From the NCBI GenBank assembly GCA_964528305.1, contig CAZGSD010000002.1, positions 93,409 through 157,408 on the forward strand: a stretch of 64,000 nucleotides of DNA. Reading direction: 5' to 3'. The translations under genes and the position numbers were made by a program. Position 1 is the first letter of the stretch; each line of letters begins with the position of its first letter. Shown piece after piece: positions 7,401 through 34,142 of the stretch. The DNA comes from an uncultured Candidatus Peribacteria bacterium (GTDB taxonomy: Bacteria > Patescibacteriota > Gracilibacteria > UBA1369). The notes under the pieces are model-generated. The model had not been told where the DNA came from, made no database searches, and was given only the letters and a program-made list of their open reading frames with translations.

Positions 7401-8004
7401 CACCTCTATTCGCACGGTCATCACCAAATCAGGCAGTCCCATGGCTTATGCCGAACTCGAAGACCCAACCAGTAAAATCAGTTTAACCATTTTCCCCAAA
7501 ATCTATCAGGAATATAAATTTAAATTAAAAGAAAATCAGATATTGATAGTTGATGGCAAACTAGAATATCGCAAAGGTTATTTGCAAATGGCCGTCTTTG
7601 AGTTGAAAACAGTTTCCTTGGAAACCATGATTAAAAACGCCAAAGAAGCTGGAATTTACGATTTAAATGAGAAAATTACCCGCCATACACCAATCATCAA
7701 CGCCGATAAACTCAAACCAACTGAAGACAAAGATAATTCAGAAAAAAAGACCCCACCCGCAACTTCATCCCCCAAACATCATCAACACATCAGTGGTGAC
7801 CAAACCCAAATCCTCATCCACATCCCCACACAATTTTCACCAACCAACTTTGACCGCTTAAAAACCCTGCTCACCAGCATGCCAGGCCCCACGCCAGTCA
7901 GCCTCAAAATCGAGCAAAATCAAGGTTACCAAACACTCAAAACACCAATTTCCATAGAAACATCCAGTCAAAATCTACAATCCATTGAAAAATTCTTTGG
8001 ATAA
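4432..8004 (+). CDS. dnaE: DNA polymerase III alpha subunit
   Basis: 1190 aa. PHP domain start FIHLNTHSHYSLLDA, then GPGRGSAAGA, MPDIDIDF, and an OB fold near the C-terminus. The C-terminal tail is low-complexity and rich in P, T, Q and H. Confidence 0.95.
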   Translation: MFIHLNTHSHYSLLDALGTPKDIVKKAKEFGSPAIGLTDNSYLYGAVEFYKAAKDAGIKAIIGCDFHFTSESRFEHSPESAKNTSRLTIIAYNNTGYQNLLQLSTLASLEGQFLQTPRLDLDLLRKYNEGLTVLSGSLKGAIGQQLEQGNYQAASELAKQFKDIFGDNYYLEIQRHPEIPAYANIEADTLRLSKDLNIPIVATQNAHYLKPQDAPPHDILLCIGNQTNLNNPDRPRYASDFSLKQPKLMTEIFADLPEACLNTVKIADQCDVKLTFGQYLIPQFKTPKQQSSKDYLRELCLQGMQELYPKDEHEKALKQLDYELEVVDKMGFNDYFLIVWDFIHYAKSNGIVVGPGRGSAAGAIIAYTLKITELDPLAHGLVFERFLNPDRISMPDIDIDFADTRRHEVLEYTIRKYGQECVSQVITYGTMSAKAAVRDVGRGMGYPYSEVDLIAKAVPNPILGKHTPLAISIEKDPNLSEIYKMNARAKELLDNAIKLEGTVRNAGTHACAVIIADRPLVNFTPLQKATDGSNGQITQYSMKYLEDIGLLKMDFLGLKNLTIIEQALKLVQARTGEQINISQIPLDDSKTFELLQRGDTTGVFQLESSGMRRYIRELKPTHFEDIVAMISLYRPGPMEWIPAYIEGKHNPEKVTYQDESFQNILKETNGIAIYQEQILLIARQFAGFSLGEADILRRAVGKKDPKALAEQKDKFISGSTNQGHSESHAKNIFEKVIEPFAGYGFNKAHAACYAMISYRTSYLKAHYPTELMAALLTSDSDNTEKIAQEMSDCENMGIQVLPPSINESEAGFAVIEEGKIRFGLGAIKGLGEGAIQQIIDSRNQQGRFTSLENFASRLPAKLINKKTIECLAYSGALDEFDERTKIAENYEAISEFAKNIDRAKHDDQHQTDLFDMSDQAAEEFQQKLNLKSVSPAGLMERLNKEKDFLGLYVSSRPLKGLGRYLKSKAKFIGDFTERDIGKNHKVAGLLTSIRTVITKSGSPMAYAELEDPTSKISLTIFPKIYQEYKFKLKENQILIVDGKLEYRKGYLQMAVFELKTVSLETMIKNAKEAGIYDLNEKITRHTPIINADKLKPTEDKDNSEKKTPPATSSPKHHQHISGDQTQILIHIPTQFSPTNFDRLKTLLTSMPGPTPVSLKIEQNQGYQTLKTPISIETSSQNLQSIEKFFG

Positions 8005-9839: not shown

Positions 9840-12317
9840 ATGCTTGAATTAATTATCATCAATCTCATTCTCATCGCGGCCGGAGCATTATCGCTCTATG
9901 GCATATTCTGGCTAGCCAAAGAAAAATACCTGGAGCACCGCAACTTCCAGCGTTCACTCAACCTGGTTTTTCTAAAAGTGCAAATGGCTAAAAAAGAGTC
10001 CAAAGAAGAACAGGATCAGGAGCAAAATTCAGGCGCCAAAGACTTCAAAGAAGCCATTAGCATCATGGCCCAGATGTACGACTCACTACATTCCATCTAT
10101 TCAGGTGACTGGAAAAACCGTTTTACCGGAGAAGATTTTCTCTCACTAGAATACGTTGTACAGCAGGAACAGATTTATTTTTACATGGTAGTACCATCCA
10201 AACTCGTCTCTCTCATAGAAAAACAGATCACCGGTCTTTTCCCAGATGCCTATGTCGATCAAACCGAAGAGTATAACATTTTCCAACCGGATTCCTGCAC
10301 AGCAGCCAAAGCTCTCACTTTGAGCAAAAATTTCATGTACCCAATTCGTACTTTTCAACGTCTCAGTTCCGATCCAATTAACAATCTAACCAACGCTCTC
10401 TCCAAATTATCCAGCGAAGACGGAGCCGCCATACAAATCATGATACGTCCTACCGATGACTGGCAAAAAGCCGGCCGGGACGAAGCCAAAAATATACTCA
10501 ATCAAAAACCCAAGAAAAACAAAACCCACCCCCTCAACCCCATCAAGTGGATTGGCGCTTTTTTCCAATTCATGATGGGACAGGAATCAAAAGATAAATC
10601 ATCAGGCCCCGAAGCACCAGACCGCACTACCCCCATGACTGACGAAGAAGTCAAAGATTTGGAACAAAAAAACACCAGCAAAGGTTATGAAACAATCATT
10701 CGCGTCATTTGCGCAGCCAAAGATGCCCATGAGGCCAAATCCAATCTTACCAATATTGTCAGCACTTTCGCCCAATATTCATCACCAACCGCCAATAAAT
10801 TCTCTAGCGTCAAACGATACCCAGAGGAAAAAATCATCAACGATTACATTTTACGCCGCTTCACTTATCCCTGGTATCAACGCATTAAAAGAAAACTGAC
10901 TATTTTATCCAGCGAGGAATTAGCCTCAATTTTCCACTTCCCTAATACTCGCTTCAACAAAACTCCCAATATTCACTGGCAAAGCTACAAAATCGCTGCC
11001 ACACCCAAAAACATGCCCAAAGAAGGTCTACTTTTGGGACATAATCATTTCCGTGGTATCACCACCGAAATACGCATGAAAAGAGAAGATCGTTTCCGCC
11101 ACTTCTACGTTATCGGTCAAACCGGTACCGGTAAATCATCTATTTTTCAAATCATGGCCCGCCAGGATTTACGCAATAATGACGGCCTGGCCGTGGTCGA
11201 TCCCCACGGTGAATTAATCGATACCTTACTACCATTTGTTCCCAAACATCGAGCCGATGATGTTATTTATTTCAGTCCTGCGGATCAAGCCCGCCCCATG
11301 GGGCTCAACCTCCTAGAAGCTGATTCAGATGATGAAAAAGAATTGGTTGCCCTAGATGCCATGAATATCATGATTAAATTATTCGGCAATGAAATTTTCG
11401 GACCACGCATACAAGATTATTTTCGCAATGGTTGTCTCACGCTAATGTCCCATCCAGAAGGCGGCACTATCGTAGACATAGTTCGACTCTTCACCGACGA
11501 CGATTTCCAGCAGGAAAAAATGCAATATGTTAAAAACCCAGTGGTAAAATCTTTCTGGACGGATCAAATGGCCAAAACTGGCGCCCGGGAAAAACAGGAA
11601 ATCATACCCTATTTTGCCGCTAAATTCGGTCAATTTATCACTAACTCCATGATGCGCAACATCATCGGACAAACCCGCTCCGCTTTCGATTTTATCGATG
11701 TTATGCAACAAAAAAAGATTCTATTCATGAATCTTTCCAAAGGTGAAATCGGTGACATCAACTCCAAATTACTCGGTTTAATCATCGTTTCCAAACTTCA
11801 AATGGCCGCCCTCCGCCGCCAAAGATTTGCCAAAGAAGATCGTCAGGACTTCTTTATGTACATCGATGAATTCCAAAACTACATCACCGATTCCATCGAA
11901 AGCATACTATCTGAAGCTAGAAAATACCGTCTCTCACTCAATATGGCTCACCAATACATCGCCCAATTAGAAGGCGAAGATGGCAAGTCCAGAGTAAAAG
12001 ACGCTGTTTTCGGCAATGTCGGAACCATGATGTGCTACAAAATAGGCGCAACTGACGCAGAATTCATGGCCAAAGAAATGGCCCCAGTCTTCTCAGCCCA
12101 AGACATGATCAATGTTGATGCTTTTAAAGGTATAATGAAATTATCCATAGACGGACAACCTTCCGTACCTTTCTCCATCTCCGTCCCCTTACCTTGGCTC
12201 GAAAAAGGCGATAAAAAGGTCGGTGAAGCTGTACGCCAGCTCTCACGCCTCAAATTTGGCCGCGATCGTGAGTTTGTGGAGAGAGAAATCACCCGTAGAA
12301 TTGGCATTATTGAATAA
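9840..12317 (+). CDS. membrane-anchored VirD4/TraD-like (type IV coupling protein family) P-loop ATPase, paralog 1
   Basis: N-terminal TM helix, Walker A GQTGTGKSS, DPHGEL, RPMGLNLLE, Walker B FMYIDEFQN and EARKYRLSLNMAHQY. The ATG directly abuts the aspS TAA. I do not recognise the N-terminal ~400 aa. Confidence 0.7.
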   Translation: MLELIIINLILIAAGALSLYGIFWLAKEKYLEHRNFQRSLNLVFLKVQMAKKESKEEQDQEQNSGAKDFKEAISIMAQMYDSLHSIYSGDWKNRFTGEDFLSLEYVVQQEQIYFYMVVPSKLVSLIEKQITGLFPDAYVDQTEEYNIFQPDSCTAAKALTLSKNFMYPIRTFQRLSSDPINNLTNALSKLSSEDGAAIQIMIRPTDDWQKAGRDEAKNILNQKPKKNKTHPLNPIKWIGAFFQFMMGQESKDKSSGPEAPDRTTPMTDEEVKDLEQKNTSKGYETIIRVICAAKDAHEAKSNLTNIVSTFAQYSSPTANKFSSVKRYPEEKIINDYILRRFTYPWYQRIKRKLTILSSEELASIFHFPNTRFNKTPNIHWQSYKIAATPKNMPKEGLLLGHNHFRGITTEIRMKREDRFRHFYVIGQTGTGKSSIFQIMARQDLRNNDGLAVVDPHGELIDTLLPFVPKHRADDVIYFSPADQARPMGLNLLEADSDDEKELVALDAMNIMIKLFGNEIFGPRIQDYFRNGCLTLMSHPEGGTIVDIVRLFTDDDFQQEKMQYVKNPVVKSFWTDQMAKTGAREKQEIIPYFAAKFGQFITNSMMRNIIGQTRSAFDFIDVMQQKKILFMNLSKGEIGDINSKLLGLIIVSKLQMAALRRQRFAKEDRQDFFMYIDEFQNYITDSIESILSEARKYRLSLNMAHQYIAQLEGEDGKSRVKDAVFGNVGTMMCYKIGATDAEFMAKEMAPVFSAQDMINVDAFKGIMKLSIDGQPSVPFSISVPLPWLEKGDKKVGEAVRQLSRLKFGRDREFVEREITRRIGIIE

Positions 12318-12396: not shown

Positions 12397-12425
12397 ATAA
12401 GGATTGCCTTAAATCTTTGCAGAAC

Positions 12426-13763
12426 ATGAAAATATTTTCAGGCTCCAAAACTATCCATAAGCAGATACTTGGTGTGCTCTGCTGTTACAATTTGTTTCTG
12501 CCATTAGCAATGGCTCAAAGCGTAGAGGCCGAAAAGCCTATAGTTTTCACTAACAAACTCACCTCAAGCGAGACTATCTCAGAAGATATCGAAACCGAAA
12601 CATCCATTTCTGAAGTCCATCCAACCCCAGACACTCCAGCACCAGCCCCATCTGAATCCAACTCCAATAATGAGCAAATTTACCCATATCAACAGACTTT
12701 CACCATTACCGCCTACTACTCACCAATAGAAGGCCAAAAACGTTACATCAGGGGCTCCCTGGCTGCTGACAAGAAACTTAATGGGCGAGGCACCAACGGT
12801 GCTGACGGCACCCCAGTCTACCCTGGCATGATAGCCGCCCCCAAATCCATAGCCTTTGGCACCAAAATGGATATTCCAGGGCTGGGAACGGTAGCCGTAC
12901 ACGATCGCGGTGGAGCCATAGTTCCGGCAGGGGAGCGGGGCCAACGTTTCGACCGCCTGGACGTCTGGATGGGCCATGGAGACGAAGGACTTAATCGAGC
13001 CCTACGATGGGGACGCCGTAACGTCAATGTAACTGTACACGGCCAAAACGAATCTATTCCTGAAAACATCGATTTATCCAGTATATCTGGAGCTGATCTA
13101 CCAATAAATACCACTAGCAACACCAGCTCCAATCAAGAATTCGGTTTAGACGATGAAAACGAGCAAATCAGCCAAATCAAAAAAAACTTCGCTCAATTGA
13201 AATACTATCAAGGTGAAATCAACAATCAATTCGACGAAAACTTACGCCAAGCCGTAGTCAAATTTCAATTAGAATATGAGGTAATTGACCAAGAAAACGA
13301 CTTTGGCGCAGGTTATTTCGGCCCCCAAACCAGAAAAACACTAGAAAAAGCTTTACAGGGACTTAGTCCAGCCAAAAATCATCAACAAAACCTCATTCCA
13401 CTAGCCCAAGCCAGTCCTCGCGATCAAATCGCCCAAAACATTGAATTTGCTGGTAATGGTCTAGCTTTCCTTGATGACGACCTATCTCTAGGCGATTCAG
13501 GTCAAGCAGTCATAGAATTACAAACCGAATTAGCCAAATTAAATCTATTCGGACTTACCCCAACAGGCTATTACGGTGAATTAACCGCCCATGCCGTCTA
13601 TAAATTCCAGCAGAGCAGGGGAATAGTAATCAACAAAGAAGCCCCTGGAGCCGGCGCCTTCGGTCCTTCCACCCGCGCCCAAATGACCATAATAGTCAGC
13701 AACCGCATCGAAAATCGCCGACTAATAGCTCAAAAAAGCCCACAATTACTGGCACAGAAATAA
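12426..13763 (+). CDS. secreted 3D-domain cell-wall hydrolase with two peptidoglycan-binding (PG_binding_1-like) repeats
   Basis: Signal peptide present. 3D-domain signature FTITAYYSP..G..TNGADGTPVYPGMIAAP..I.FGT..DIPGLG...VHDRGGAI. C-terminal repeats LRQAVVKFQ...GYFGPQTR and TAHAVYKFQ..GAFGPSTR. The ORF track starts at TTG 12417; I prefer the ATG at 12426. Confidence 0.75.
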   Translation: MKIFSGSKTIHKQILGVLCCYNLFLPLAMAQSVEAEKPIVFTNKLTSSETISEDIETETSISEVHPTPDTPAPAPSESNSNNEQIYPYQQTFTITAYYSPIEGQKRYIRGSLAADKKLNGRGTNGADGTPVYPGMIAAPKSIAFGTKMDIPGLGTVAVHDRGGAIVPAGERGQRFDRLDVWMGHGDEGLNRALRWGRRNVNVTVHGQNESIPENIDLSSISGADLPINTTSNTSSNQEFGLDDENEQISQIKKNFAQLKYYQGEINNQFDENLRQAVVKFQLEYEVIDQENDFGAGYFGPQTRKTLEKALQGLSPAKNHQQNLIPLAQASPRDQIAQNIEFAGNGLAFLDDDLSLGDSGQAVIELQTELAKLNLFGLTPTGYYGELTAHAVYKFQQSRGIVINKEAPGAGAFGPSTRAQMTIIVSNRIENRRLIAQKSPQLLAQK

Positions 13764-15184: not shown

Positions 15185-16294
15185 TTATGCTGTTCTCATC
15201 GCTTCATCCAAAGCATAAACCGCACGACCAACACGCACAAATTGGGGATTCTTTTGCAAATTAAGAGAAATAGTACCTTTTTTCACTCTTCGTTGCTTCA
15301 TCACCCCAGCAATAATTTCTTGCTTGCTCATTGGAGATTTCTTACGCAACAAATTCTCAATCACATCTGCCACAGTTCCTTTCTTATATCCCCATTCTTT
15401 CAAAGCATACAAACCGCGGCCAACCAATACAAACTGATCATAACGTATCAATTCATTATGAACGGCCTGAGTTGTTACCAACTTTTTATCAAAACCAGCC
15501 GCCGCAATACGATTAGCAATTTCCACAAAATGAAGAGGTTCAGTTGATTTTTTTAATACTATATAAGCTTTATCACGAATACTACGAGGATTAATATGTC
15601 GCCAAGAAGTCAATCCAAAGCCCTCAGCAACTTTTTTCACTCTTTTGTCTACTTCCATCGCTGAAAGTATCAAAAGCATATCGACAGTCTTACCACGTTC
15701 GGCAAAAACCGCCTGTATCTCACGTCCCAATTCAGCATCAACAACAATATCCCCCTTCTTATTCAATAAGGCTATACCATGATTAATAGCAGCCTTAATA
15801 TCTTCAAAAGCAATAGAGCTTAATTTCCAAAACGGTTTATAAATATTGCTCTTTTCACATTGCACTAGATCAGCATTGATATGCAAAGCCAAACGGATGA
15901 TATGAGCATCCACATCCTGCGCATTAGACAATTGATTCAAAAGCTCAGCCACCAAACGGCTCTCTAACATCAAACCTCCATTGTTTTTCAAAATATCTCT
16001 TGCCAATTTATTAATCACACTAAGCCTAGTAGTATCAACCGTACGACGTAGCTTACCAAGAGCAATTTTTTCTATCTGACGAACACGTTCTCTCGTGACA
16101 GAAAAAGATTGTCCTATTTTCTCCAAAGTCTGTCTCGGCTTATTATCCAAACAAAAACGTTTTACTATTACATCTTTTTCTTTTGGAGTAAGAACCATAA
16201 ACATGTCCTCAATCACGTCCATCAAATTCACGCTAACCAACTGTGACACACCAGCTGCGGCTACAGATCCAGAAGATGATAAATCCTGATTCAT
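15185..16294 (-). CDS. sigma-70 region-4 domain protein with two C-terminal HARE-HTH/winged-helix domains, paralog 1
   Basis: LEKIGQSFSVTRERVRQIEKIALGKLRR closely matches the sigma70 region 4.2 HTH. No region 2 is visible. The C-terminus LHFVEIANRI...VHNELIRYDQFVLVGRGLYALKEWGY matches the HARE-HTH pattern and is followed by a second similar repeat. Confidence 0.7.
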   Translation of the reverse strand: MNQDLSSSGSVAAAGVSQLVSVNLMDVIEDMFMVLTPKEKDVIVKRFCLDNKPRQTLEKIGQSFSVTRERVRQIEKIALGKLRRTVDTTRLSVINKLARDILKNNGGLMLESRLVAELLNQLSNAQDVDAHIIRLALHINADLVQCEKSNIYKPFWKLSSIAFEDIKAAINHGIALLNKKGDIVVDAELGREIQAVFAERGKTVDMLLILSAMEVDKRVKKVAEGFGLTSWRHINPRSIRDKAYIVLKKSTEPLHFVEIANRIAAAGFDKKLVTTQAVHNELIRYDQFVLVGRGLYALKEWGYKKGTVADVIENLLRKKSPMSKQEIIAGVMKQRRVKKGTISLNLQKNPQFVRVGRAVYALDEAMRTA

Positions 16295-18748: not shown

Positions 18749-18758
18749 ATCTAGACAC

Positions 18759-19758: not shown

Positions 19759-19779
19759 TCAGATTAAAAGAAACCCGCT

Positions 19780-20814
19780 TTAAGCAGCCTTCAGAGCATA
19801 CTGCTTACGTCCAACCCTCACAAACTGATCTTTATTTTTCAAACTCAAAACTATAGTAATAGGCTTCACCTGACGCTGCTTTAATACCTCAGCCACTATG
19901 TCTTCCTGTGACATAGAGTCTTTACCATGCAAAATACCGGCAATAACATCAGCCACAGTGCCAGATTTAAAGCCCCATTCAGCCAAACTATAAATACCAC
20001 GACCAATCAACACAAACTCATCATGACGTATCAGCTCATTATGAACAGCTTGAAGATTAATTTTCTTCCTATCGAAATTACATTCGATAATTTTATTGGC
20101 TATATCGACAAAATGCATTGGTTGCTTTTTCATACGCAACACAAAATAAATTTTGTCACGCAAAGTCCGAGGGTTGATATGGCGCCATTCAAAAAGTCCC
20201 ACCAGTCCACCGTCCAAAACTTTAATTTTCTTATCCACTCGAATCAGAGACTGATAAGTTTCTAGAGTCATAGACACCTTACTTCCAGTTATAACTGCCG
20301 CATACAAATCCTCCAAAGACATTACCTGTTTTGCTTTAGCCAAAGCATCAACCGTCTGTTCACAAACCCCCTCCAAATCTGATTGGAGCAAAGCCACCAT
20401 TTTCAGATAAGGAAAATAAGATACAGTATTAGGAATTCTATTGAAACGTTTATCTATGGATAAAATCAATTGCAGAGCTTCAACAGGATAATCAACATGA
20501 ACCTTGATTAATTCATTAAGTAAGGTCTCTTCCTTAATTACTCCACCAGCTGTCTCAATCAAATCATATGCCATATTCGCCACTGCAAACAAACCACAAT
20601 TCTCTAAATTTCTCTTCAATTTACCTAGAGCATTTTTTTCTATCTGCCTTACTCTTTCTCTGGTAACAGAAAACTTTTGTCCTATTTCTTCAAGCGTAGC
20701 TCTCTCTTGCTGATCCAGATTGAAACGTCTCTCCACAACAAACCTTTCTTTCTGAGTTAACAACAATAAAAAGTCCTGTACCTGTTTAACAAAATCTTCT
20801 GTGACCATGCTCAT
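19780..20814 (-). CDS. sigma-70 region-4 domain protein with two C-terminal HARE-HTH/winged-helix domains, paralog 2
   Basis: LEEIGQKFSVTRERVRQIEKNALGKLKR, then MHFVDIANKI...VHNELIRHDEFVLIGRGIYSLAEWGF and a second repeat. Colinear with 15185..16294. Confidence 0.7.
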   Translation of the reverse strand: MSMVTEDFVKQVQDFLLLLTQKERFVVERRFNLDQQERATLEEIGQKFSVTRERVRQIEKNALGKLKRNLENCGLFAVANMAYDLIETAGGVIKEETLLNELIKVHVDYPVEALQLILSIDKRFNRIPNTVSYFPYLKMVALLQSDLEGVCEQTVDALAKAKQVMSLEDLYAAVITGSKVSMTLETYQSLIRVDKKIKVLDGGLVGLFEWRHINPRTLRDKIYFVLRMKKQPMHFVDIANKIIECNFDRKKINLQAVHNELIRHDEFVLIGRGIYSLAEWGFKSGTVADVIAGILHGKDSMSQEDIVAEVLKQRQVKPITIVLSLKNKDQFVRVGRKQYALKAA

Positions 20815-20957: not shown

Positions 20958-21620
20958 TCACTCCAAAATATAACCGCTACAGGGAACAGTTTTAATCATA
21001 TCATCTACATCAAAACTAGCCTTCAAAATTTTACGTAACTTACTTACATGCACATCCACGGTATTGGTCGAAACAATAAAATTCATATCCCAAACATTTT
21101 CCAAAATATTATTCCTGCTCAAAACCCGACCTCTATTTCTAGCCAAATACAACAACAACTCAAACTCTTTATTTGGTAAAAAAACTTCAGCACGCCCATC
21201 ACCAACAACCCGCCTGTTTAAATTCAACTTTAAAACTCCCAATTCCAAAGAGTCTTTAAGCAAATAATTTTTCACTCCAACTATAGACTGTAAATCATCT
21301 AACAATAATTGATAATTCAAGGGCCAAAAATAACATCTCATGACACCATCAGCTAATCGCCCCAAATTTTCACTCGGAGTAGGCAGTCCATCCATTAAAA
21401 AAAACTTTTCCATTGGCAAAGAAATTTTCATTAAATCAACCCAAATTTCTCCAACACGATCAAATAAAATCACATCACAACTCAATTCCACAGTACCCGC
21501 CCCCACATATCTCCTAAAATACTCAACCCCCATCCTTTCAACTATCACCTTATTTTTCATCAAATATCTGCACACCCCCTCCACCTCACTAATTTTATCC
21601 GAAACCATCAATAATTTCAT
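20958..21620 (-). CDS. OmpR/PhoB-type winged-helix regulator with a degenerate receiver domain
   Basis: The C-terminus LPNKEFELLLYLARNRGRVLSRNNILENVWD...TNTVDVHVSKLRKIL is a Trans_reg_C signature. The N-terminal receiver keeps DVILFD, but the conserved Lys-Pro position reads WPL. Confidence 0.7.
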   Translation of the reverse strand: MKLLMVSDKISEVEGVCRYLMKNKVIVERMGVEYFRRYVGAGTVELSCDVILFDRVGEIWVDLMKISLPMEKFFLMDGLPTPSENLGRLADGVMRCYFWPLNYQLLLDDLQSIVGVKNYLLKDSLELGVLKLNLNRRVVGDGRAEVFLPNKEFELLLYLARNRGRVLSRNNILENVWDMNFIVSTNTVDVHVSKLRKILKASFDVDDMIKTVPCSGYILE

Positions 21621-21757: not shown

Positions 21758-22777
21758 ATGAAAACACCAGCCGAAATACAACACGCGCTTAAACAGCTCA
21801 ACCTGCCAATTTTCCGTCAAAAGCAAATCAGCAGTGCTGTCTTCGAACAGGGGATTACCAGCTATCAAGACATTACAACTCTACCAGCCACAGCCAAACA
21901 AACACTCGCCACCCATCTTCCTATCCTGTCCATTACACCAGTAATTCATGTCGTCTCTCAAAAAAAGGACACGGAAAAAGCCCTCTTTGAAATAGCAGGC
22001 GGATTAAAAATCGAGGCGGTATTAATGAAATTTCGAGATGGACGCAATTCCATTTGCGTTTCCAGCCAGGCCGGCTGTCAAATGGGTTGTAAATTCTGCG
22101 CCACAGGTACAATGAAATTTGGCCGCAACCTTACCGCTGAGGAAATTTTCGATCAGGTGCTTTATTTTCATTGCCAACTAGTCAAAAGTGGTGAGCATAT
22201 TTCCAATATTGTCTTCATGGGCATGGGAGAACCATTTATGAATTACGATCACGTCATGAGTGCTGTCAGAAGAATAAATTCTCCAGAAGAACTCGGCATA
22301 GCGGCCCGCCGCATCACACTTTCTACTTCCGGATTGGTAGATGGTATTGAAAAACTCACAGCGGATCCCTTGCAAGTCAATTTGGCCGTATCGCTACACG
22401 CCCCCAATCAAGCCGCCCGCGAAAAAATCATGCCAGTAGCCAGACTTTGGCCATTAGAAAAACTTTTATCTGCCATTCACCAATATACTGAAAAAACTCA
22501 TCGCCGCGTGTCTTTTGAGTATGTCATGCTCAAAAACATCAACGATTCCACTGCTATGGCAGAAGAACTTGCTCAGATTAGCAACAATAAATTGATTCAC
22601 ATCAATATCATTCCTTACAATCAAACCTCCATTGAAAACATTTCCGGCAGTGACAGACAAACTATTTTAAATTTTCAAAAAATCTTACAAAATGCCGGCA
22701 TCAGTGCTACAGTCAGAGTAACCATGGGGGAGGACATTGCAGCAGCCTGTGGACAATTAGCCAATAAAAATAGTTAA
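21758..22777 (+). CDS. rlmN: 23S rRNA/tRNA A2503 methyltransferase RlmN (radical SAM)
   Basis: SSQAGCQMGCKFCATG (CxxxCxxC), FMGMGEPFMNY and the C-terminal catalytic Cys in AACGQL. Confidence 0.9.
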   Translation: MKTPAEIQHALKQLNLPIFRQKQISSAVFEQGITSYQDITTLPATAKQTLATHLPILSITPVIHVVSQKKDTEKALFEIAGGLKIEAVLMKFRDGRNSICVSSQAGCQMGCKFCATGTMKFGRNLTAEEIFDQVLYFHCQLVKSGEHISNIVFMGMGEPFMNYDHVMSAVRRINSPEELGIAARRITLSTSGLVDGIEKLTADPLQVNLAVSLHAPNQAAREKIMPVARLWPLEKLLSAIHQYTEKTHRRVSFEYVMLKNINDSTAMAEELAQISNNKLIHINIIPYNQTSIENISGSDRQTILNFQKILQNAGISATVRVTMGEDIAAACGQLANKNS

Positions 22778-22793: not shown

Positions 22794-23102
22794 ATGACAC
22801 AACCACACAATCAACAACCAGCAGGAAATCCACAAAATCCAGCTCAACCAGCCGGAGCATCTCCCAAAATCAATTTAAAAATCGAAGCCGCCCAAGAGCA
22901 GGGGAGTTACGCTAATGCTATTTCCATACATGTTAATCACAATGAGGTCATTCTAGATTTCGGCTACATGATGCCAAATCAAGACCCTCTAACAGTGAAA
23001 CTAGTCAGCCGCGTCAATCTCACCCACAGTACCGCCGAAAGCCTACTCAGCGTACTATCAAACGCTATGCTAGACTGGCGCAATAAAAACAAGAAATCTT
23101 AA
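22794..23102 (+). CDS. DUF3467-like small protein
   Basis: 102 aa. YANAISIHVNHNEVILDFGYM matches my memory of the DUF3467 core. Tentative. Confidence 0.5.
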   Translation: MTQPHNQQPAGNPQNPAQPAGASPKINLKIEAAQEQGSYANAISIHVNHNEVILDFGYMMPNQDPLTVKLVSRVNLTHSTAESLLSVLSNAMLDWRNKNKKS

Positions 23103-23119: not shown

Positions 23120-24535
23120 ATGAGTATCGAGAACAACATGGATCACATTATTTCACTTTGCAAAAGACGCGGCTTCATCTTCCCAGGATCAGAAATATAC
23201 GGAGGGTTGGCAAATAGCTGGGATTACGGCCCTCTTGGTTCTCAATTGAAAAAAAATATTCAGGACATCTGGTGGAAAACTTTTGTAGAAAATCGACTAG
23301 ATATGGTTGGCCTAGATAGTGCTATTTTAATGAATCCAACTATTTGGGAAGCTTCTGGTCATGTAGCTGGTTTTAGCGACCCTTTGATGGATTGTAAAAA
23401 ATGTAAATCTCGAGAAAGAGCCGATAAGCTAATTGAAACCTGGATACATGAGAATAAATCCAACGAAAAACCCGCTAATTGGGCTGGAGAAAAAACCCCT
23501 CCTGCTGATTTATTGGACTTTATAATGGAGAAAAGAATTCTTTGCCCCATCTGTCAGGCCTGCGACTGGAGTGAGCCCAAAGCTTTCAATCTAATGTACA
23601 AAACAAAACAGGGAGTAGTAGAAGGCGAAGGCAAAGATATCTATCTACGCCCAGAAACAGCTCAGGGTATTTTTGTAAATTTCAAAAATGTACTGGATAC
23701 CAGCCGCAAAAAACTCCCCTTTGGCATAGCACAAATCGGTAAAGCTTTTCGCAATGAAATTACACCTGGAAATTTCATATTCCGTACGCGTGAATTCGAA
23801 CAAATGGAAATAGAGTATTTTTTCGACCCCGAAAACACTCCCTGGACAAGCATTTTCGAGCAATGGAAACAAGACAGTATGAATTTCGTGGTTAATAAAT
23901 TAAATATTTCCGCAGAAAAACTCCGTCTACGTGACCATGATCCTGATGAATTATCGCATTATTCCAAAGGTACCACCGATATAGAATATCACTTTCCTTT
24001 TGGCTGGGGAGAACTAGTAGCTGCCGGAGCATACCGCACCGATTTTGATCTCAAACAACACGAAAAATATTCCGGTCAAAAGCTAACTTATCTGGATCCG
24101 CAAACCAATCGTGTCTTCACGCCACATGTCATGGAACCAAGCTTTGGTTTAACCCGTCTAACTTTGGCAGTATTATTAGATGCTTATCACGAAGAAAAAC
24201 TAGCTGATGATGATAGCCGCATAGTAATGAAATTCAAACCATCCCTCGCCCCCATCTCCGTAGCAGTTCTACCACTGGTCAATAAACTCAACACCCCAGC
24301 CCAGGAACTGGCTCAAAATCTACTGCAGGATTTCCGCGTCGATTTCGACACCTCCGGCACCATCGGCAAACGTTATCGCCGTCAGGATGAAATTGGCACA
24401 CCTTTCTGCGTTACTTTCGATTTTGAAAGCTTGGAAGATCAATCTGTTACAGTTCGAGATCGTGATACAATGCAACAGGAGAGAATTCCTCTCGCTCAAT
24501 TAAAAACATATCTACAAAACAAATTAAATCAATAA
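23120..24535 (+). CDS. glyQS: glycine--tRNA ligase (alpha2 type)
   Basis: 471 aa. RRGFIFPGSEIYGGLANSWDYGPLG, LRPETAQGIFVNF, FRNEITPGNFIFRTREFEQMEIEYF and the C-terminal anticodon-binding domain. Confidence 0.95.
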   Translation: MSIENNMDHIISLCKRRGFIFPGSEIYGGLANSWDYGPLGSQLKKNIQDIWWKTFVENRLDMVGLDSAILMNPTIWEASGHVAGFSDPLMDCKKCKSRERADKLIETWIHENKSNEKPANWAGEKTPPADLLDFIMEKRILCPICQACDWSEPKAFNLMYKTKQGVVEGEGKDIYLRPETAQGIFVNFKNVLDTSRKKLPFGIAQIGKAFRNEITPGNFIFRTREFEQMEIEYFFDPENTPWTSIFEQWKQDSMNFVVNKLNISAEKLRLRDHDPDELSHYSKGTTDIEYHFPFGWGELVAAGAYRTDFDLKQHEKYSGQKLTYLDPQTNRVFTPHVMEPSFGLTRLTLAVLLDAYHEEKLADDDSRIVMKFKPSLAPISVAVLPLVNKLNTPAQELAQNLLQDFRVDFDTSGTIGKRYRRQDEIGTPFCVTFDFESLEDQSVTVRDRDTMQQERIPLAQLKTYLQNKLNQ

Positions 24536-24541
24536 AAACCA

Positions 24542-27073
24542 ATGCCAGAACTGGCTAATCCACTAGAACAAATACTTGAAGGCGACATTATGCTGGGCCT
24601 GCTCAACTTACTGATCTGGGGCGCTATCATCATTATAGGCCTCAAATTACTGCGCAAATTTGCCCGTGATATTTTTATACTTCATCAAAATCGCAGTCAC
24701 GTCTGCCTAAAAATTCGCGTACCGCGTGAAGATTCCACTAAAGACAACGAAAAAAAAGAGGACAAAGATTTCAAAGAAAAAGTCAGCCTGATGGAACAGT
24801 GTTTTCGTAATATACATGAACTGTCCGAACTCAGTCTCACCAATATCATTCGTACCACACTCTTTGATTCCAATATTATTTCTTTTGAAATAGTCGCTCA
24901 GAAAAAAGTAATTGATTTTTATCTGATCACACCCGCCATCTATCGTGAATTGCTGGAAAAACAAATCACTGCCTACTATCAGGACGCCGACATCATTCCC
25001 GTAGAAAACTACCAAATCACCAGCCCGGGTCAGCATTTACGCATGTATTTTGCCTATCTTACCCAACCTTTCTGGTTTCCCTTCAAAACCTACAAAACCA
25101 CCGAAAACGACCCCCTCAATGATCTCACCAACATTTTTTCCAAGCTGGAAGACAATGAAATAGCCGGATTACAGGTGACACTTCGACCAATTCGCAGCCG
25201 CAAATACAATAAAATCATCGAACAAACTGCCTCAACATTATTCAAAGGCAAAAAAGTCAATCGTTTCCATATTCCAGGATTGGGCTTCCTCAACAATATC
25301 ATTGTCGGCCTCTTTTTTGGCTATGACAAAATCATCAAAGACAAACCGGAAGATCAGGGTGGTTTCGTCCGCATGCTCCAACCTCTGGAAGAGCGAGCAA
25401 AAAAGATGGGGGAAAAAGCCGCCCAACCATTGTTTCGCACTGTGATAAGATTTTTCGCTTCTGCCAGCACCACCCGCCGCGCCGAAGAAATCACTAACAA
25501 TGTCAATTTAGCTTTCAGCATGTTTCGCGACGAATCCTCCAACTGGTTTCAGACTCGGCGCGTGGTGCCAATCGACGCCATCAATAACCACTTCATGGCC
25601 TTCAACTACCGCAACAGGTTGATTGATACTTCTTTTGGGCCCTTTGGAGAAAAAAACAGTATCAACGGTCCAGAAGAAATCGCCTCCATCTTTCACCTAC
25701 CCTGTAGCCGCTACAATCACACCCCAGCCATCAATTGGCTGCCCTACAAAGTACTTCCAGCCCCAATAGAAACACCAAAAGAGGGAATTTTACTCGGCTA
25801 CAACTTGCACCGTGGCGTAAAAAAAGAAATTCGCATGCTACGTAAAGATCGCACCAGACATCATTACTGCATCGGTAAATCTGGTTCCGGAAAATCTGTT
25901 TTCTTAAGCTTCTTAGCCCGTCAAGATATTTTGGCTGGCGATGGAGTCGGTGTAATCGACCCACATGGAGATCTCATTGAAGAATTAACCAATTTCGTGC
26001 CAAAAGAACGGGCTAAAAACTGTATTATCTTTAATCCATCCGATTCCGAACGCCCCATGGGCTTAAACATACTAGAAGCCAAAACTCCCGAAGAAATGGA
26101 TATGGCCTCCAGCCAAGCCACCGAAATTTTCATCAAACTTTTCGGTGACGAAATTTTCGGACCACGCATCCAACATTATTTCCGCAACGCTTGCCTTACC
26201 TTGATGGAAGACCAAGAAGAAGGCGCCACCCTGATCGACGTCCCACGCGTTTTCGTCGACGATGAGTTCATGAAATACAAAGTCAGCAAAGTCAAAAACC
26301 CCGTGGTCCGCTCTTTTTGGGAACATGAATATGCCCACACCGGCGATCGCGAGAAACAAGAAATGATTCCTTACTTCTCCGCAAAATTCGGTCCATTCAT
26401 CACTAATTCCATCATGAGAAATACTATTGGGCAGACCAAATCTGCTTTCAATTTCCGTGAAGCGATGGATAAACAACAGATTTTGCTGATCAATCTCTCC
26501 AAAGGTAAAATCGGTGATCTCAACACACAACTCCTGGGACTGGTAATGGTTGCCAGAATTCAAATGGCCGCCATGAGCCGCGTGGACATACCAGAAGAAG
26601 CCCGCAAAGATTTTTATCTCTATGTAGATGAATTCCAAAATTTTTCCACCGACAGTTTCTGCTCCATTCTCTCCGAAGCTCGTAAATATCACCTGGCCCT
26701 GATCATGGCCAATCAATATATCAAACAGCTGGAAAAGAAAAATGACACCTCCATACGTGACGCTGTCTTTGGTAACGTCGGTACCATGATGTCTTTCAAA
26801 GTTGGTGCTGATGATGGCGAATATCTGGCCAAAGAATACGCACCAGTACTCACCGAACAGGACATCATCTCCATCGCCAATTTCAAAGCTTATATCAAGC
26901 TCAACATCAATAACACCACTTCACGACCATTTTCACTGGAAACAGTTTATGACATGAGTGGAGCCAACAAAAAAATCGGTGAAATCGTCACCCAGTATTC
27001 CCGCATCAAATATGGCCGTAAAAAAGAATTTGTCGATCAAGAAATTCGCGCCCGCATCGGCATAGAAGTTTAG
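24542..27073 (+). CDS. membrane-anchored VirD4/TraD-like P-loop ATPase, paralog 2
   Basis: N-terminal TM helix, Walker A GKSGSGKSV, DPHGDL, RPMGLNILE, Walker B YLYVDEFQN and EARKYHLALIMANQY. Long colinear blocks are shared with 9840..12317. It starts 6 nt after the glyQS stop. Confidence 0.7.
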   Translation: MPELANPLEQILEGDIMLGLLNLLIWGAIIIIGLKLLRKFARDIFILHQNRSHVCLKIRVPREDSTKDNEKKEDKDFKEKVSLMEQCFRNIHELSELSLTNIIRTTLFDSNIISFEIVAQKKVIDFYLITPAIYRELLEKQITAYYQDADIIPVENYQITSPGQHLRMYFAYLTQPFWFPFKTYKTTENDPLNDLTNIFSKLEDNEIAGLQVTLRPIRSRKYNKIIEQTASTLFKGKKVNRFHIPGLGFLNNIIVGLFFGYDKIIKDKPEDQGGFVRMLQPLEERAKKMGEKAAQPLFRTVIRFFASASTTRRAEEITNNVNLAFSMFRDESSNWFQTRRVVPIDAINNHFMAFNYRNRLIDTSFGPFGEKNSINGPEEIASIFHLPCSRYNHTPAINWLPYKVLPAPIETPKEGILLGYNLHRGVKKEIRMLRKDRTRHHYCIGKSGSGKSVFLSFLARQDILAGDGVGVIDPHGDLIEELTNFVPKERAKNCIIFNPSDSERPMGLNILEAKTPEEMDMASSQATEIFIKLFGDEIFGPRIQHYFRNACLTLMEDQEEGATLIDVPRVFVDDEFMKYKVSKVKNPVVRSFWEHEYAHTGDREKQEMIPYFSAKFGPFITNSIMRNTIGQTKSAFNFREAMDKQQILLINLSKGKIGDLNTQLLGLVMVARIQMAAMSRVDIPEEARKDFYLYVDEFQNFSTDSFCSILSEARKYHLALIMANQYIKQLEKKNDTSIRDAVFGNVGTMMSFKVGADDGEYLAKEYAPVLTEQDIISIANFKAYIKLNINNTTSRPFSLETVYDMSGANKKIGEIVTQYSRIKYGRKKEFVDQEIRARIGIEV

Positions 27074-27090: not shown

Positions 27091-28287
27091 ATGGATCCAT
27101 CCAATAAACAAATATCAAAATTAAAATTCTACTCCTTCCTATTCGCCTTTATTTTGCTACTGCAAATTATCGGGGTTGCTTTTTTTCTGCGTAATTCCAA
27201 CCGCCTACATTCCGCTAGTCTCAATCAAATCAATTCCCTGATCAGCGAAGTAGGCACACTCAAAGAAGAAAACCTACTACTCAATACCAGTCTCAATCAG
27301 GAGAAAAATCTGAATCAATTAAATGAACAAACCATTCGCCAAATCTACTTAAGCGTGGCAGCCAATCAATCCAACACCAAAGATTTGCAAACCAATCTAC
27401 TTAGCTATCAAAATTTTTTAGAAAATGAACGTCGCAAATTATCAGCAGAAAAGACATTACTCAACACCACCATACAAAATCAACAAAACACCATTCAGCA
27501 GTTGAAACAAAAAGAACAGGCCCAAGCAGCCAGCAATGAATTAAATGATAAAATCGACGCCATACTGTTTTTAGGAGAAAATCAAAAATTAACCGACACC
27601 ATACAATTAGCTATAATCAATCCACAAAAACAACAGACAACCCTGATCAGCATTCCACGCGATCTATACTTCGAAGGACGAAAAATCAATGAATATTACA
27701 AATTTTACGGTATAGAAAAAACCGCCGAGGTCGTTAACAAAATCACTAACATTAAAATTGATCATTATGTTAGCCTCAATTTCCAGGCTTTTATCGAATT
27801 AATCGATCTGCTGGGAGGACTTGATATTCAAATAGATAAAGCTCTACTAGATAATGCCTACCCAACAGCAAACGGCGGCTACAAAATAGTAACCTTCACG
27901 CCCGGCCTAGAACATATGACAGGGGAGCGCGTACTGGAATATGCCCGTTCCAGAAAAAGCACCAGTGATTTTGATCGCAGCCTGCGCCAACAAAAAATTC
28001 TGCAGGCCATAAGAGACAAATTAGCCAGTCTCAATATTATGAAAAATATTCAATTTTACCTGACCGCCTTTCAAAGTCTGCAAAAAAATCTACAAACCGA
28101 TTTCAATATCCTGGAAGCCATCGAACTTTTCGAACAACACAAAGCCAATCAGCTTTCCACCGGCCATAGCTTAAGCAACAGCAATTACCTCTATTCCTCA
28201 ACCAGCCTCCAGGGCCAATCAATACTCCTGCCAAAAGACGGCAACTTCCAGGCTTTCCAAAAATATTTAGCGGAATTGATTAACTAA
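27091..28287 (+). CDS. LytR-CpsA-Psr (LCP) family cell-wall polymer transferase with an N-terminal TM helix and coiled coil
   Basis: TDTIQLAIINP...LISIPRDLYF, IDHYVSLNFQAFIELIDLLGG and EYARSRKSTSDFDRSLRQQ. Confidence 0.85.
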   Translation: MDPSNKQISKLKFYSFLFAFILLLQIIGVAFFLRNSNRLHSASLNQINSLISEVGTLKEENLLLNTSLNQEKNLNQLNEQTIRQIYLSVAANQSNTKDLQTNLLSYQNFLENERRKLSAEKTLLNTTIQNQQNTIQQLKQKEQAQAASNELNDKIDAILFLGENQKLTDTIQLAIINPQKQQTTLISIPRDLYFEGRKINEYYKFYGIEKTAEVVNKITNIKIDHYVSLNFQAFIELIDLLGGLDIQIDKALLDNAYPTANGGYKIVTFTPGLEHMTGERVLEYARSRKSTSDFDRSLRQQKILQAIRDKLASLNIMKNIQFYLTAFQSLQKNLQTDFNILEAIELFEQHKANQLSTGHSLSNSNYLYSSTSLQGQSILLPKDGNFQAFQKYLAELIN

Positions 28288-31362: not shown

Positions 31363-32760
31363 ATGTCTCATCAAACTTTAAAAGCTTTCCAAAAATACCA
31401 GAACATTCATTTTATTGGAATTGGCGGAATAGGAATAAGTGCTCTTGCTAGAATTTTGGCCAGGACAGGCCATCATATTACCGGATCAGACAACAGCACC
31501 AGCCACAACAGTGAATTACTTCAACAAGAAGGGATTATCCTTCACTCTGTGCATCAGGCGGAAAACATTCCACCACAAACCAACTTAGTGATACACACCA
31601 CGGCTATAGCCGATGATAATGTTGAGTTGCAGGCAGCTCGAAACAGGGGACTCACTATACTGACTTACCCACAGGCCATTGGTTTACTCACTAAGTCCTA
31701 TCGCAGTATTTGTATAGCAGGCACACATGGCAAAACCACCACCACGGCCATGCTGGGACTGATGATGGCAGCAGAACAAACGGATCCAACGGTCATTGTC
31801 GGAAGTCTGATCAAAGAGTTTGATCAGAAAAATGAAAGGCTAGGCAAGTCTCCTTGGCTGGTATTGGAATCCTGTGAATACAAAGACGCTTTTCTCAATT
31901 ATCAACCAGAAATAATTGTACTTACCTGTATTGATCCCGAACATCTGGATTATTTTAAAACAACAGAAAATTACCTGCAGGCTTTCATCAACTTCCTGTC
32001 CCGGCTGCCAGAAACAGGTGTATTGATAGCCAATATAGACGATGCCAATATCAAAAAAATTATTCAAGAAAATAACTGGAAATTCTCAATCATCACCTAT
32101 GGCACATCGCCCATAGCTGATTTTCAATTAAACCAGCATCAATTAAAATTACCATCCGGAAAAACATTAGAAGTAAATTTATCAATTCCCGGCCAACACA
32201 ATTTACACAATGCCTCAGCTGCTCTGACCGCATTACTACATCTACAGGGAAACAACACAGCGCCAAAACAGGCCCTAACTGCTTTAAACAACTTTCGTGG
32301 AGCCGCACGACGCTTCGAAATCAAAGGCCAACTTGGTAAAACTACGATTATAGACGACTACGCCCACACTCCCATGGAAATCCAGGCCACCATGCAGGGA
32401 GCTAGAGAACGGTTTGGCACAGAAGCAAAAATATTAGTTATCTTTCAGCCCCACCAATATTCCCGAACACATTTTTTCCTCAAAGAATTCGGACAATCTT
32501 TCCAAAACGCCGACCATGTATTCATCCCCAACATTTACCGCACCCGCGACAGTGAAGAAGATGTAAGCAAAGTCAACGTTGATCTATTGGTAGCAGAAAT
32601 CAACAAAAATCACCCCACCACCGCCCGCGCCTCCAACACCCACAGCCTCCCTGAAACATTACAAAAAACCCTCTCCATCGCCACACAATTTGACGTAATC
32701 CTCACCATCGGCGCGGGCGACATCACCAAACTCAGCGATCAGATTCTCTCAAGCTCCTGA
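31363..32760 (+). CDS. murC: UDP-N-acetylmuramate--L-alanine ligase
   Basis: IHFIGIGGIGISALARIL, CIAGTHGKTTTTAM, and the Mur ligase middle and C-terminal domains (DDYAHTP). Confidence 0.9.
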   Translation: MSHQTLKAFQKYQNIHFIGIGGIGISALARILARTGHHITGSDNSTSHNSELLQQEGIILHSVHQAENIPPQTNLVIHTTAIADDNVELQAARNRGLTILTYPQAIGLLTKSYRSICIAGTHGKTTTTAMLGLMMAAEQTDPTVIVGSLIKEFDQKNERLGKSPWLVLESCEYKDAFLNYQPEIIVLTCIDPEHLDYFKTTENYLQAFINFLSRLPETGVLIANIDDANIKKIIQENNWKFSIITYGTSPIADFQLNQHQLKLPSGKTLEVNLSIPGQHNLHNASAALTALLHLQGNNTAPKQALTALNNFRGAARRFEIKGQLGKTTIIDDYAHTPMEIQATMQGARERFGTEAKILVIFQPHQYSRTHFFLKEFGQSFQNADHVFIPNIYRTRDSEEDVSKVNVDLLVAEINKNHPTTARASNTHSLPETLQKTLSIATQFDVILTIGAGDITKLSDQILSSS

Positions 32761-34142
32761 GACCCATCTGGAGAGTCTTTCACCACATATCCTAAGCCTT
32801 TAATTGCTTCACGCAAGCGATCTGATTCAGCAAAATCTTTTTTCTGTCGAGCCAGCCCTCTCTCCGCTAATAATTTTGTCAATTCAATATCCACCACCAT
32901 TTCAGATTCAACCACATCCAACCCCAATCCAAACACTCGATCAAAATCCAAAACCGTCGCCAATTTAACAGCATCACTCAAATCAGACTTCAAAACTTCC
33001 CACAATACGCCCAAAGCCTCCGCTGTATTTAAATCATTATTAATAACTTCCATAAATTTAGCCCGATACGACGCATCAATCTCACCCGGAGCAACAAGTT
33101 TCTGCAGTTCCGTAACCTTACGACGCAACCTCTTCAATGCCGTCTGCGCCCCCTCCAAAGCCTCCCAGGTGAAATTCAACTGAATTCGATAATGCGTTCC
33201 CAAATTCAAATAACGAAAAGCCAAAGGATCAAAACCTTTATCAATCACATCCTGCACTAGATAAGCATTCCCTTCAGATTTCCCCATACGTCGACCATCC
33301 ACCATCATAAATTCTCCATGCAGCCAGTAATTCACATATTTCTCACCGTTAGCCGCTTCACTCTGAGCTATCTCATTTTCATGATGTATGGCTATGTGAT
33401 CAACCCCACCACAATGCACATCAAAATGCCTCCCCAAATATTTCATACTCATGGCACTACACTCTATATGCCAACCAGGAAAGCCTTTACGCCCCCAAGG
33501 AGAATCCCATTCCATCTGACGTTTCTCTCCCGCAGGCGTAAATTTCCAAAGAGCAAAATCAAAAGGATTTCTCTTATCTTCATTCAATTCCACTCGAGCC
33601 CCAACTTTTTTTTCAGCCAATTTTTGCCCGGATAATTTCCCATAATCCTGCCATTTACTGACATCAAAATAAATTCCATCAGAAGTTTGATAAGCATATC
33701 CCTTCTTTTCCAAATCAACCACCATAGCCAACTGTTCCTCAATATGATCAGTAGCACGAGGCATCAAAGCCGCTTTTTCAACATTTAATTTTCGGAGATC
33801 CGTCTCAAAAGCTTCTGTATAAAACCGGGCTATTTCCCAAGCATCACGCCCCTCCTTACGAGCAGCTTTCTCCATTCTATCCTCTCCACTATCTGCATCT
33901 CCCAAATTATCTCCGGTCAAATGCCCCACATCAGTAATATTCACAATCTGTTTCACCACCAAATCGTTATATTCAAACATTCGGCGCAAAATATCTTCAA
34001 ACAGATACATTCGCATATTTCCTAAATGCGCATAAGCATAAACAGTCGGTCCACAGCAATACATGGCCACCTTACCCGATTCAAGAGGAACAAATTCCTG
34101 CATTGACCGCCCCAAAGTATTAAAAAGTTTAATTGAATTCAT
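32739..34142 (-). CDS. cysS: cysteine--tRNA ligase
   Basis: CGPTVYAYAHLGNMR (HIGH region), GWHIECSAM (zinc site) and RMGKSEGN (KMSKS). The 3' end overlaps murC by 22 nt. Confidence 0.95.
   Translation of the reverse strand: MNSIKLFNTLGRSMQEFVPLESGKVAMYCCGPTVYAYAHLGNMRMYLFEDILRRMFEYNDLVVKQIVNITDVGHLTGDNLGDADSGEDRMEKAARKEGRDAWEIARFYTEAFETDLRKLNVEKAALMPRATDHIEEQLAMVVDLEKKGYAYQTSDGIYFDVSKWQDYGKLSGQKLAEKKVGARVELNEDKRNPFDFALWKFTPAGEKRQMEWDSPWGRKGFPGWHIECSAMSMKYLGRHFDVHCGGVDHIAIHHENEIAQSEAANGEKYVNYWLHGEFMMVDGRRMGKSEGNAYLVQDVIDKGFDPLAFRYLNLGTHYRIQLNFTWEALEGAQTALKRLRRKVTELQKLVAPGEIDASYRAKFMEVINNDLNTAEALGVLWEVLKSDLSDAVKLATVLDFDRVFGLGLDVVESEMVVDIELTKLLAERGLARQKKDFAESDRLREAIKGLGYVVKDSPDGSQELERI

Follow-up and report, generated by a model that had tools for sequence, protein, structure and literature searches.

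The stretch of DNA analysed here (64,000 nucleotides, hereafter the window; C2:93409-157408 in the 96%-complete assembly, 0.96 Mb in 23 contigs, of an uncultured Candidatus Peribacteria bacterium) encodes two paralogous ATPases resembling type IV coupling proteins (T4CPs), each lying directly behind the gene of a class II aminoacyl-tRNA synthetase (aaRS): T4CP1 behind aspS and T4CP2 behind glyQS. Judged by sequence, both belong to a Patescibacteria-wide set of chromosomal T4CP-like ATPases that has already been catalogued. Comparison of gene order indicates that each copy was fixed in a compact, co-directional housekeeping string in the ancestor of the order to which this genome belongs, and that the strings have been inherited largely intact since. 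Because the strings are so preserved, we consider it likely that the position of these ancient paralogues behind an aaRS gene signifies read-through co-transcription from housekeeping promoters and is no evidence of a mechanistic link with aminoacylation, and that the adjoining envelope enzymes are their likelier partners.

Two ATPase genes directly behind different synthetase genes

We read both junctions from the open reading frame (ORF) map and the raw sequence (Table 1). The TAA stop of aspS is followed on the very next base by the ATG of T4CP1 (9840; gap 0 nt), and 6 nt (aaacca) separate glyQS from the ATG of T4CP2 (24542); a second in-frame ATG in T4CP2 at 24590 (Met17) would leave a gap to glyQS of 54 nt. 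A sequence-only reading of this DNA had given the same positions and junctions, all of them correct. It had also held that the upstream genes are two different class II synthetases, which NCBIfam models bear out (AspRS, 826.7 bits; GlyRS, 645.2 bits), and because AspRS and GlyRS differ, the two pairs do not stem from one segmental duplication, as it had argued. An alignment of the two ATPases spans 828 residues with 43% identity (E = 0), in keeping with the whole-length colinearity that had been described, and the shared blocks quoted in its support are present. A cell-wall gene indeed follows each ATPase, encoding a PG_binding_1 protein with a weak 3D match behind T4CP1 and a LytR-CpsA-Psr (LCP; LytR_cpsA_psr) protein behind T4CP2. 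The orthologue of the former in a relative (locus L035) matches Pfam 3D at 8.9e-09.

Read-through co-transcription of the aaRS and ATPase genes is the simplest reading of these gaps, and a probable one. Pattern scans of the plus strand turned up no terminator-like sites between synthetase and ATPase gene, which likewise fits co-transcription. Promoter- and terminator-like counts at both junctions were at the level of shuffled sequence, so the scans are uninformative, and unknown Patescibacteria promoters would fall outside the patterns scanned.

Conservation of the gene strings within the order

We compared 77 flanking regions from a kinship-ranked sample of 41 genomes of the order, in which 24 further genera of its own family and 16 further families are represented, and counted a locus where its flank reached 1.5 kb or more. 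aspS lies directly upstream of T4CP1 in 29/33 evaluable genomes (median gap 45 nt, range −1 to 136), and a 3D/peptidoglycan-binding hydrolase is found within three genes downstream of T4CP1 in 35/35, at a gap of about 100 nt. At the other locus, glyQS is among the three co-directional genes upstream of T4CP2 in 29/34 evaluable genomes and adjoins it directly in 17/34, with a median gap of 91 nt; the 6 nt of the window is the sole glyQS–T4CP2 gap of ≤10 nt in the sample. The LCP gene occupies position +1 of T4CP2 in 24/33 evaluable genomes (median gap 0.5 nt, 21/24 gaps ≤10 nt). At both loci the wall gene is bound to the ATPase gene no less tightly than the synthetase gene is. In the majority of genomes of the order dnaE immediately precedes aspS, and cysS lies 6–7 genes downstream of T4CP2 throughout. 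The conserved units are the whole strings dnaE-aspS-T4CP1-hydrolase and (radical SAM)-DUF3467-glyQS-T4CP2-LCP, not the aaRS–ATPase pair as such, and each string usually has a divergent gene for a Sigma-70 region 4/HARE-HTH (sigma4/HARE-HTH) protein upstream. An early estimate of the aaRS linkage from tree rows (10/26 and 7/8, from 80 loci) understated conservation within the order and was superseded by the kinship-ranked sample.

Each synthetase adjacency is absent from some genomes. In two members of the same family (G002 and G014) nothing matches aspS at E ≤ 1e-60, and there dnaE abuts T4CP1 with gaps of 81 and 44 nt (L206, L213); aspS has either been cleanly excised or been replaced by a divergent AspRS gene elsewhere. 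In 14 of the order's genomes (L222–L238 and others), glyQS is followed by a RadC-like JAB gene (~215 aa, with an HNHPSG motif) before T4CP2 is reached. Its identity with the 175-aa protein encoded upstream of the T4CP in other classes (see below) was considered and rejected (hhalign probability 0.06), and tblastn found no radC anywhere in the genome studied here. In a Peribacteria metagenome-assembled genome (MAG; L044, 2761-9800), glyQS, aspS, T4CP1 and the 3D hydrolase gene form a single string, so that the two synthetase genes adjoin each other.

Gene order beyond the order

We sampled 56 genomes that belong to the class but to other orders; in none of them (0/56) did aspS or glyQS adjoin a T4CP gene, the closest lying 6–12 kb upstream on the same strand, and neither adjacency occurred in the other Patescibacteria classes sampled. 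The single T4CP1/2-type gene of those classes sits in a string of the form cysS-(corA)-175-aa protein-T4CP-(methyltransferase)-210-aa protein-dnaX, with cysS two to three genes upstream; other upstream neighbours in the wider sample encode SecY, PilB, MraW, DnaJ, the CCA-adding enzyme and, once, PheT (pheT). We found no recurrence of the aaRS–ATPase pair across independent lineages beyond shared ancestry, and given these limits each aaRS adjacency counts as a single evolutionary event, which became fixed in the ancestor of the order. A gene order common to one order and no further points to inherited operon structure rather than to a functional tie to translation. The sequence-only reading had proposed that synteny in related genomes would show whether the linkage recurs: it does so within the order (29/33 for aspS, 29/34 for glyQS) and does not beyond it. 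A specific tie to the translation machinery, to which its suggestion of constitutive co-expression pointed, is not supported, as the adjacency is bound to one order, aspS is lost in two genomes and the RadC-like gene intervenes in 14.

The chance of finding an aaRS gene at −1 is ~2.3% (~20 aaRS genes among ~880 called genes), and that of two such hits among three paralogues ~2 in 1,000, for a class of coincidence defined post hoc. In view of the same limits on the linkage, we give this coincidence no functional weight.

Two side observations concern other genomes. In family f27 of the class, aspS and glyQS are just 2.5–7 kb apart. In two Gracilibacteria with a recoded TGA (L020, L026), two T4SS_pilin (PF18895) genes follow the T4CP2-type orthologue, and in L026 a PilC-like gene precedes it; no such direct connection with pilus genes exists in the order of the genome studied here.

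Architecture of the ATPases

The Pfam T4CP families (TrwB_AAD_bind, T4SS-DNA_transf and TraG-D_C) match the C-terminal 400 residues alone, and nothing in Pfam matches the N-terminal 370 residues, even with the threshold relaxed to E = 10. An AlphaFold2 (AF2) model of full-length T4CP2, built on 60 homologues (pLDDT 88.7), matched TrwK/VirB4 structures in the Protein Data Bank (PDB) over ~900 aligned columns (E 1e-13), while its C-terminal half matched TrwB (1e9s/1gl6) with TMt 0.62–0.68 over 420–465 columns. Modelled alone (pLDDT 90.7), the N-terminal domain gave 14 PDB matches at E ≤ 1e-3, all of them to TrwK/VirB4 (best E 1.4e-6, TMq 0.39–0.45). The AF2 model further predicts a single long N-terminal helix (residues 15–50) and a helical block at about 516–630, inside the motor, where TrwB_AAD_bind spans residues 434–784. 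Walker A (G-x-x-G-x-GK) and Walker B (DEFQN) are invariant among the 60 homologues. On the strength of these fold matches and intact Walker motifs, each ATPase consists of one membrane helix, a VirB4-like N-terminal domain and a VirD4/TrwB-type P-loop motor with an all-alpha domain.

This combination departs from both reference types. The motor is of the FtsK/HerA superfamily, with T4SS-DNA_transf and TrwB_AAD_bind above their cut-offs, and it contains an all-alpha domain as coupling proteins do; the C-terminal half shares its fold, P-loop motor plus all-alpha domain, with TrwB of R388 and with VirD4, TraD and Cag-beta. TrwB, however, has a short two-helix anchor and no large N-terminal domain, whereas here the short, typically two-helix anchor directly before the motor is replaced by one helix and a VirB4-like domain of ~370 aa. 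TrwB is also plasmid-borne beside a relaxase gene, while the present ATPases (sequence identity to TrwB ~15%) are core chromosomal genes in housekeeping strings; no relaxase or VirB4-channel gene is encoded alongside them, the neighbours being dnaE, aspS, glyQS and the LCP and hydrolase genes, although no genome-wide relaxase search was made. In turn, the N-terminal domain matches the N-terminal domains of VirB4 only (TrwK/VirB4 of R388; PDB 7o42, 7o43, 8rtd), and the likeness to TrwK/VirB4 extends over the whole protein, yet the motor is not of VirB4 type: TIGR00929 scored 23.7 bits against a cut-off of 643.1, around Walker A only, and T4CP profiles win. An all-alpha domain of the coupling-protein kind further sets the motor apart from TrwK/VirB4, and a VirB4-like gene is encoded separately in this genome.

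An ancient duplication, probably together with a regulator gene

We built a tree of 78 homologues, drawn from 80 species-level loci and the three paralogues of this genome (the third is described below), with paralogue 3 as outgroup. Paralogues 1 and 2 fell in sister clades, with an SH-aLRT of 100 for the joint clade. Each of the two clades holds both standard-code Peregrinibacteria/Peribacteria MAGs and TGA-recoded (code-25) Gracilibacteria, and the homologues in MAGs of Doudna-, Uhr-, Falkow- and Saccharibacteria type fall outside them. The tree thus places the T4CP1/T4CP2 duplication before the split between these standard-code MAGs and the recoded Gracilibacteria; dating it by phylogeny had been suggested by the sequence-only reading, and the answer is that it is ancient. 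All three paralogues occur in 41/41 genomes of the order. In a class-wide sample, at least one T4CP1/2-type copy is present in 61/61 genomes, and the 56 from other orders mostly have two.

In most genomes of the order the two ATPase loci lie 10–20 kb apart on one contig, in the same or inverted orientation. Between them in the window are two copies of the sigma4/HARE-HTH gene, A and B, whose products are 43% identical. On a tree, the A and B types form sister clades relative to the homologues of other classes, and across the order the A type is tied to the T4CP1 locus and the B type to the T4CP2 locus. Copy B and an OmpR-like gene are divergent from string B, and this arrangement, sigma4/HARE-HTH and ompR facing the radical SAM gene, is kept in the order. 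In other classes, a sigma4/HARE-HTH homologue stands in an operon ahead of a split T4CP3-type ATPase. These relationships suggest that the sigma4/HARE-HTH gene was probably duplicated along with the ATPase, as part of one ATPase-plus-regulator neighbourhood.

A third paralogue and dispersed secretion genes

The third paralogue (892 aa, 36–38% identical) lies outside the window at C2:177587-180265(-), ~57 kb further on the same contig, behind rplI and ruvX and convergent with pgk; its orthologues retain the order ileS-...-rplI-ruvX-T4CP3. Contig C10 carries a VirB4-like gene of 845 aa at 17355-19892, and the genome has 14 matches to the VirB2-like pilin family of type IV secretion systems (T4SSs), including one at 50231-50425(-) of the window. 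A type IV system is therefore present, with coupling-type ATPases encoded elsewhere. The third paralogue, the two sigma4/HARE-HTH paralogues between the loci, the VirB4-like gene and the 14 pilin matches are features beyond those of the sequence-only reading. We also considered the ATPases as a replacement for FtsK and rejected this, because a separate canonical FtsK (C3:31191-33662) is encoded, with four transmembrane helices, motor and gamma winged helix.

The T4SS pilin matches are located at window positions 50210-50659(-), at C2:31889-38941 and on C4 and C15; they include tandem multi-domain ORFs and one ORF of 1,587 aa with a pilin-like segment. Many genomes of the order (G005, G006, G015, G019, G023, G025, G026, G030, G031, G033, G035-G040) carry a fourth T4CP-like open frame of ~740–780 aa that matches the query ATPase in its motor half only; this frame is not in the genome studied here.

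Gene neighbourhood of the window

Further features surround the two strings (Table 1). String B is closely followed by an AlaRS-like paralogue at 28280-29404(-) and by cysS, bringing four aaRS-type genes within 26 kb. Beside sigma4/HARE-HTH copy A is a plus-strand gene at 16907-18229 whose 440-aa product has weak GT2-like Pfam matches only; the product is homologous to that of the gene at +1 of split T4CP3-type ATPases in other Patescibacteria (15 loci). Contigs C1-C8 show a very strong strand GC skew (0.1–0.3 absolute per 10 kb, with constant sign per contig), and coding is split near-evenly between the strands despite this skew; the plus strand of the window is the C-rich one.

Table 1 Features around the two ATPase loci (window positions)
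Feature	Position	Strand	Evidence and remarks
tsaE	3956..4417	+	Pfam TsaE 1.8e-29; first gene of co-directional string A here; position variable among relatives
dnaE (DNA polymerase III alpha), string A	4432..8004	+	Pfam DNA_pol3_alpha 9e-99 and partner domains
aspS, class II aspartate--tRNA ligase	8067..9839	+	NCBIfam NF001750 826.7 bits; single genomic copy
ATPase paralogue 1 (T4CP1, 825 aa)	9840..12317	+	Pfam T4SS-DNA_transf 9.4e-12, TrwB_AAD_bind 3.8e-08; residues 412-756 only
Peptidoglycan-binding protein with 3D-type hydrolase domain	12417..13763	+	Pfam PG_binding_1 9.9e-16; weak 3D match 0.0042
Sigma-70 region 4/HARE-HTH protein, copy A	15185..16294	-	Pfam Sigma70_r4 5.3e-14, HARE-HTH 8.6e-08
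Sigma-70 region 4/HARE-HTH protein, copy B	19780..20814	-	Pfam Sigma70_r4 7.7e-14, HARE-HTH 1.2e-05
OmpR-type winged-helix regulator	20958..21620	-	Pfam Trans_reg_C 1.7e-23; divergent from string B
Radical SAM protein	21758..22777	+	Pfam Radical_SAM 7e-14; first gene of string B; kept upstream within family
DUF3467 protein, string B	22794..23102	+	Pfam DUF3467 1.6e-11; before glyQS in most genomes of the order
glyQS, class II glycine--tRNA ligase (dimeric type)	23120..24535	+	NCBIfam NF003211 645.2 bits; single genomic copy
ATPase paralogue 2 (T4CP2, 843 aa)	24542..27073	+	Pfam TrwB_AAD_bind 4.8e-12, residues 434-784; architecture of paralogue 1
LCP (LytR-CpsA-Psr) glycopolymer transferase	27091..28287	+	Pfam LytR_cpsA_psr 5.4e-34; downstream of paralogue 2
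cysS	32739..34142	-	Clusters with Pfam-verified CysRS; older conserved neighbourhood of T4CP1/2-type gene

Alternative explanations

Several findings weigh against our explanation by inheritance and read-through. Co-transcription is read from the gaps, the promoter- and terminator-like scans being at chance level. The aspS–T4CP1 junction has been kept over 54–78% aspS identity, 17 families and rearranged flanks, which could reflect selection on the pair. In separate clades, aaRS genes also turn up repeatedly close to members of the family (aspS, glyQS, cysS at −2/−3, pheT once at −3, and ileS 5–6 genes before T4CP3), at a frequency that we roughly estimate to be somewhat above the 2–3% expected per gene. 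Finally, the sole Southlakia homologue described in the literature proved non-essential (PMC12102498). One rival is a functional aaRS–ATPase linkage, whether through a substrate tied to tRNA or translation (for example, RNA or tRNA taken in from the host, or a product related to an aaRS that is exported) or through a dosage locked to aaRS expression, with selection for a common transcript. It would fit the very tight junctions of 0 and 6 nt, the retention of aspS–T4CP1 in 29/33 genomes and 17 families, and the different aaRS genes upstream in three separate clades, including cysS in 7/15 loci of another clade of the candidate phyla radiation, besides the single pheT and the ileS ahead of T4CP3; a 2026 preprint moreover reports host-RNA uptake by a cultivated Patescibacterium, by a mechanism left unresolved there (10.64898/2026.06.21.733656). 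We nevertheless regard such a linkage as very unlikely: either adjacency is found in 0/56 genomes of other orders, dnaE–T4CP1 stays in place where aspS is absent, in 14 genomes the RadC-like gene keeps glyQS and T4CP2 apart, with a glyQS gap of ~91 nt elsewhere, the identity of the aaRS differs per clade among otherwise generic housekeeping neighbours, and each linkage is a single evolutionary event. A related thought, to which the same preprint gives room, is that the VirB4-headed ATPases could be cytoplasmic-membrane motors that import host nucleic acid (RNA or DNA) through a type IV apparatus, with the paralogues dividing substrates or forming mixed rings; strings that contain genes for handling nucleic acid (aaRS genes, dnaE, dnaX, ruvX, ssb and the RadC-like gene) would then reflect this role. 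We consider it unlikely.

The genes downstream invite a different grouping, in which the module would be an ATPase and an envelope enzyme (T4CP2–LCP and T4CP1–hydrolase), perhaps with the sigma4/HARE-HTH gene, serving a wall-spanning apparatus, and the aaRS genes would be bystanders. The near-absent T4CP2–LCP gap (median 0.5 nt, ≤10 nt in 21/24) and the hydrolase in 35/35 genomes favour it, as do the peptidoglycan-binding, sortase, DsbA-like and T4SS-pilin genes that recur downstream in other lineages; it is well established that conjugation systems of monoderm bacteria depend on a peptidoglycan hydrolase of their own (review PMC12857230), and the sigma4/HARE-HTH paralogues track both ATPase loci, with a homologue in an operon before the split T4CP3-type ATPase in other classes. 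The LCP and hydrolase partners are, however, lineage-limited in turn, LCP is not among the common +1/+2 families of the wider sample, LCP enzymes are not known to take part in type IV secretion, and the partnership is a prediction from gene order. We hold this grouping as a tentative possibility; it is compatible with our explanation and refines it. An origin as leftovers of integrated conjugative elements that landed beside aaRS genes might be suspected from the best sequence matches, which are to the conjugative coupling proteins TraD, VirD4 and TrwB, and from the general knowledge that tRNA-related loci are classic integration sites. Such an origin is barely credible and was rejected on universal presence and fixed context, with three paralogues in 41/41 genomes of the order in constant chromosomal context and at least one copy in 61/61 of the class sample. 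No relaxase, integrase or VirB genes occur within the strings, the catalytic motifs are intact and invariant, and GC content around both ATPase loci (0.41–0.45) is close to that of the rest of the window (0.37–0.45).

Discussion

The explanation by inheritance and read-through suggests the following picture. The ATPases would form membrane-anchored hexameric rings or motors that work with or beside a dispersed T4SS, represented by the VirB4-like gene and the VirB2-like pilin arrays. By analogy with VirB4 in R388, the VirB4-like N-terminal domain may dock on inner-membrane parts of the T4SS, while the coupling-type motor would engage the substrate. In this streamlined 0.96 Mb genome the proteins would be made constitutively from housekeeping transcripts, and the downstream envelope enzymes, the putatively translationally coupled LCP above all and the ever-present hydrolase, would be likelier partners than the synthetases.

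The strings resemble the 'uber-operons' of reduced genomes, where essential genes unrelated to each other run in one direction with little or no space between them and each lineage inherits them as blocks. Unlike in the usual uber-operon, two paralogues here occupy the same slot, after a class II aaRS gene and before that of a wall enzyme.

Patescibacteria chromosomal 'T4CP homologues to VirD4' have been described (Quinonero-Coronel et al. 2025, PMC12102498); that survey places them far from virB4, at about two or more copies per genome, with no relaxase nearby and with function unassigned, and its authors raise exaptation as a possibility. The present ATPases belong with these homologues, sharing the phylum, the Pfam/T4CP profile matches and the distance from virB4. 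The survey counted such genes and, as far as consulted, gave no description of the VirB4-like N-terminal domain, of three paralogues in this order or of the fixed sites behind aspS and glyQS. A full-text literature search returned no described link of Patescibacteria coupling proteins with aaRS genes.

New here are the three stable ATPase paralogues of one order, two of which come from an old duplication that probably included the sigma4/HARE-HTH gene. Being locked in housekeeping strings, the ATPases stand out as core genes with constitutive expression and not as cargo of mobile elements. The T4SS is essential for the epibiotic life of the one genetically tractable Patescibacterium, and its coupling-protein-like ATPases sit elsewhere on the chromosome. 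As clues to what these ATPases do, the synthetase neighbours can be discounted, and LCP and the always-present peptidoglycan hydrolase become the candidate partners.

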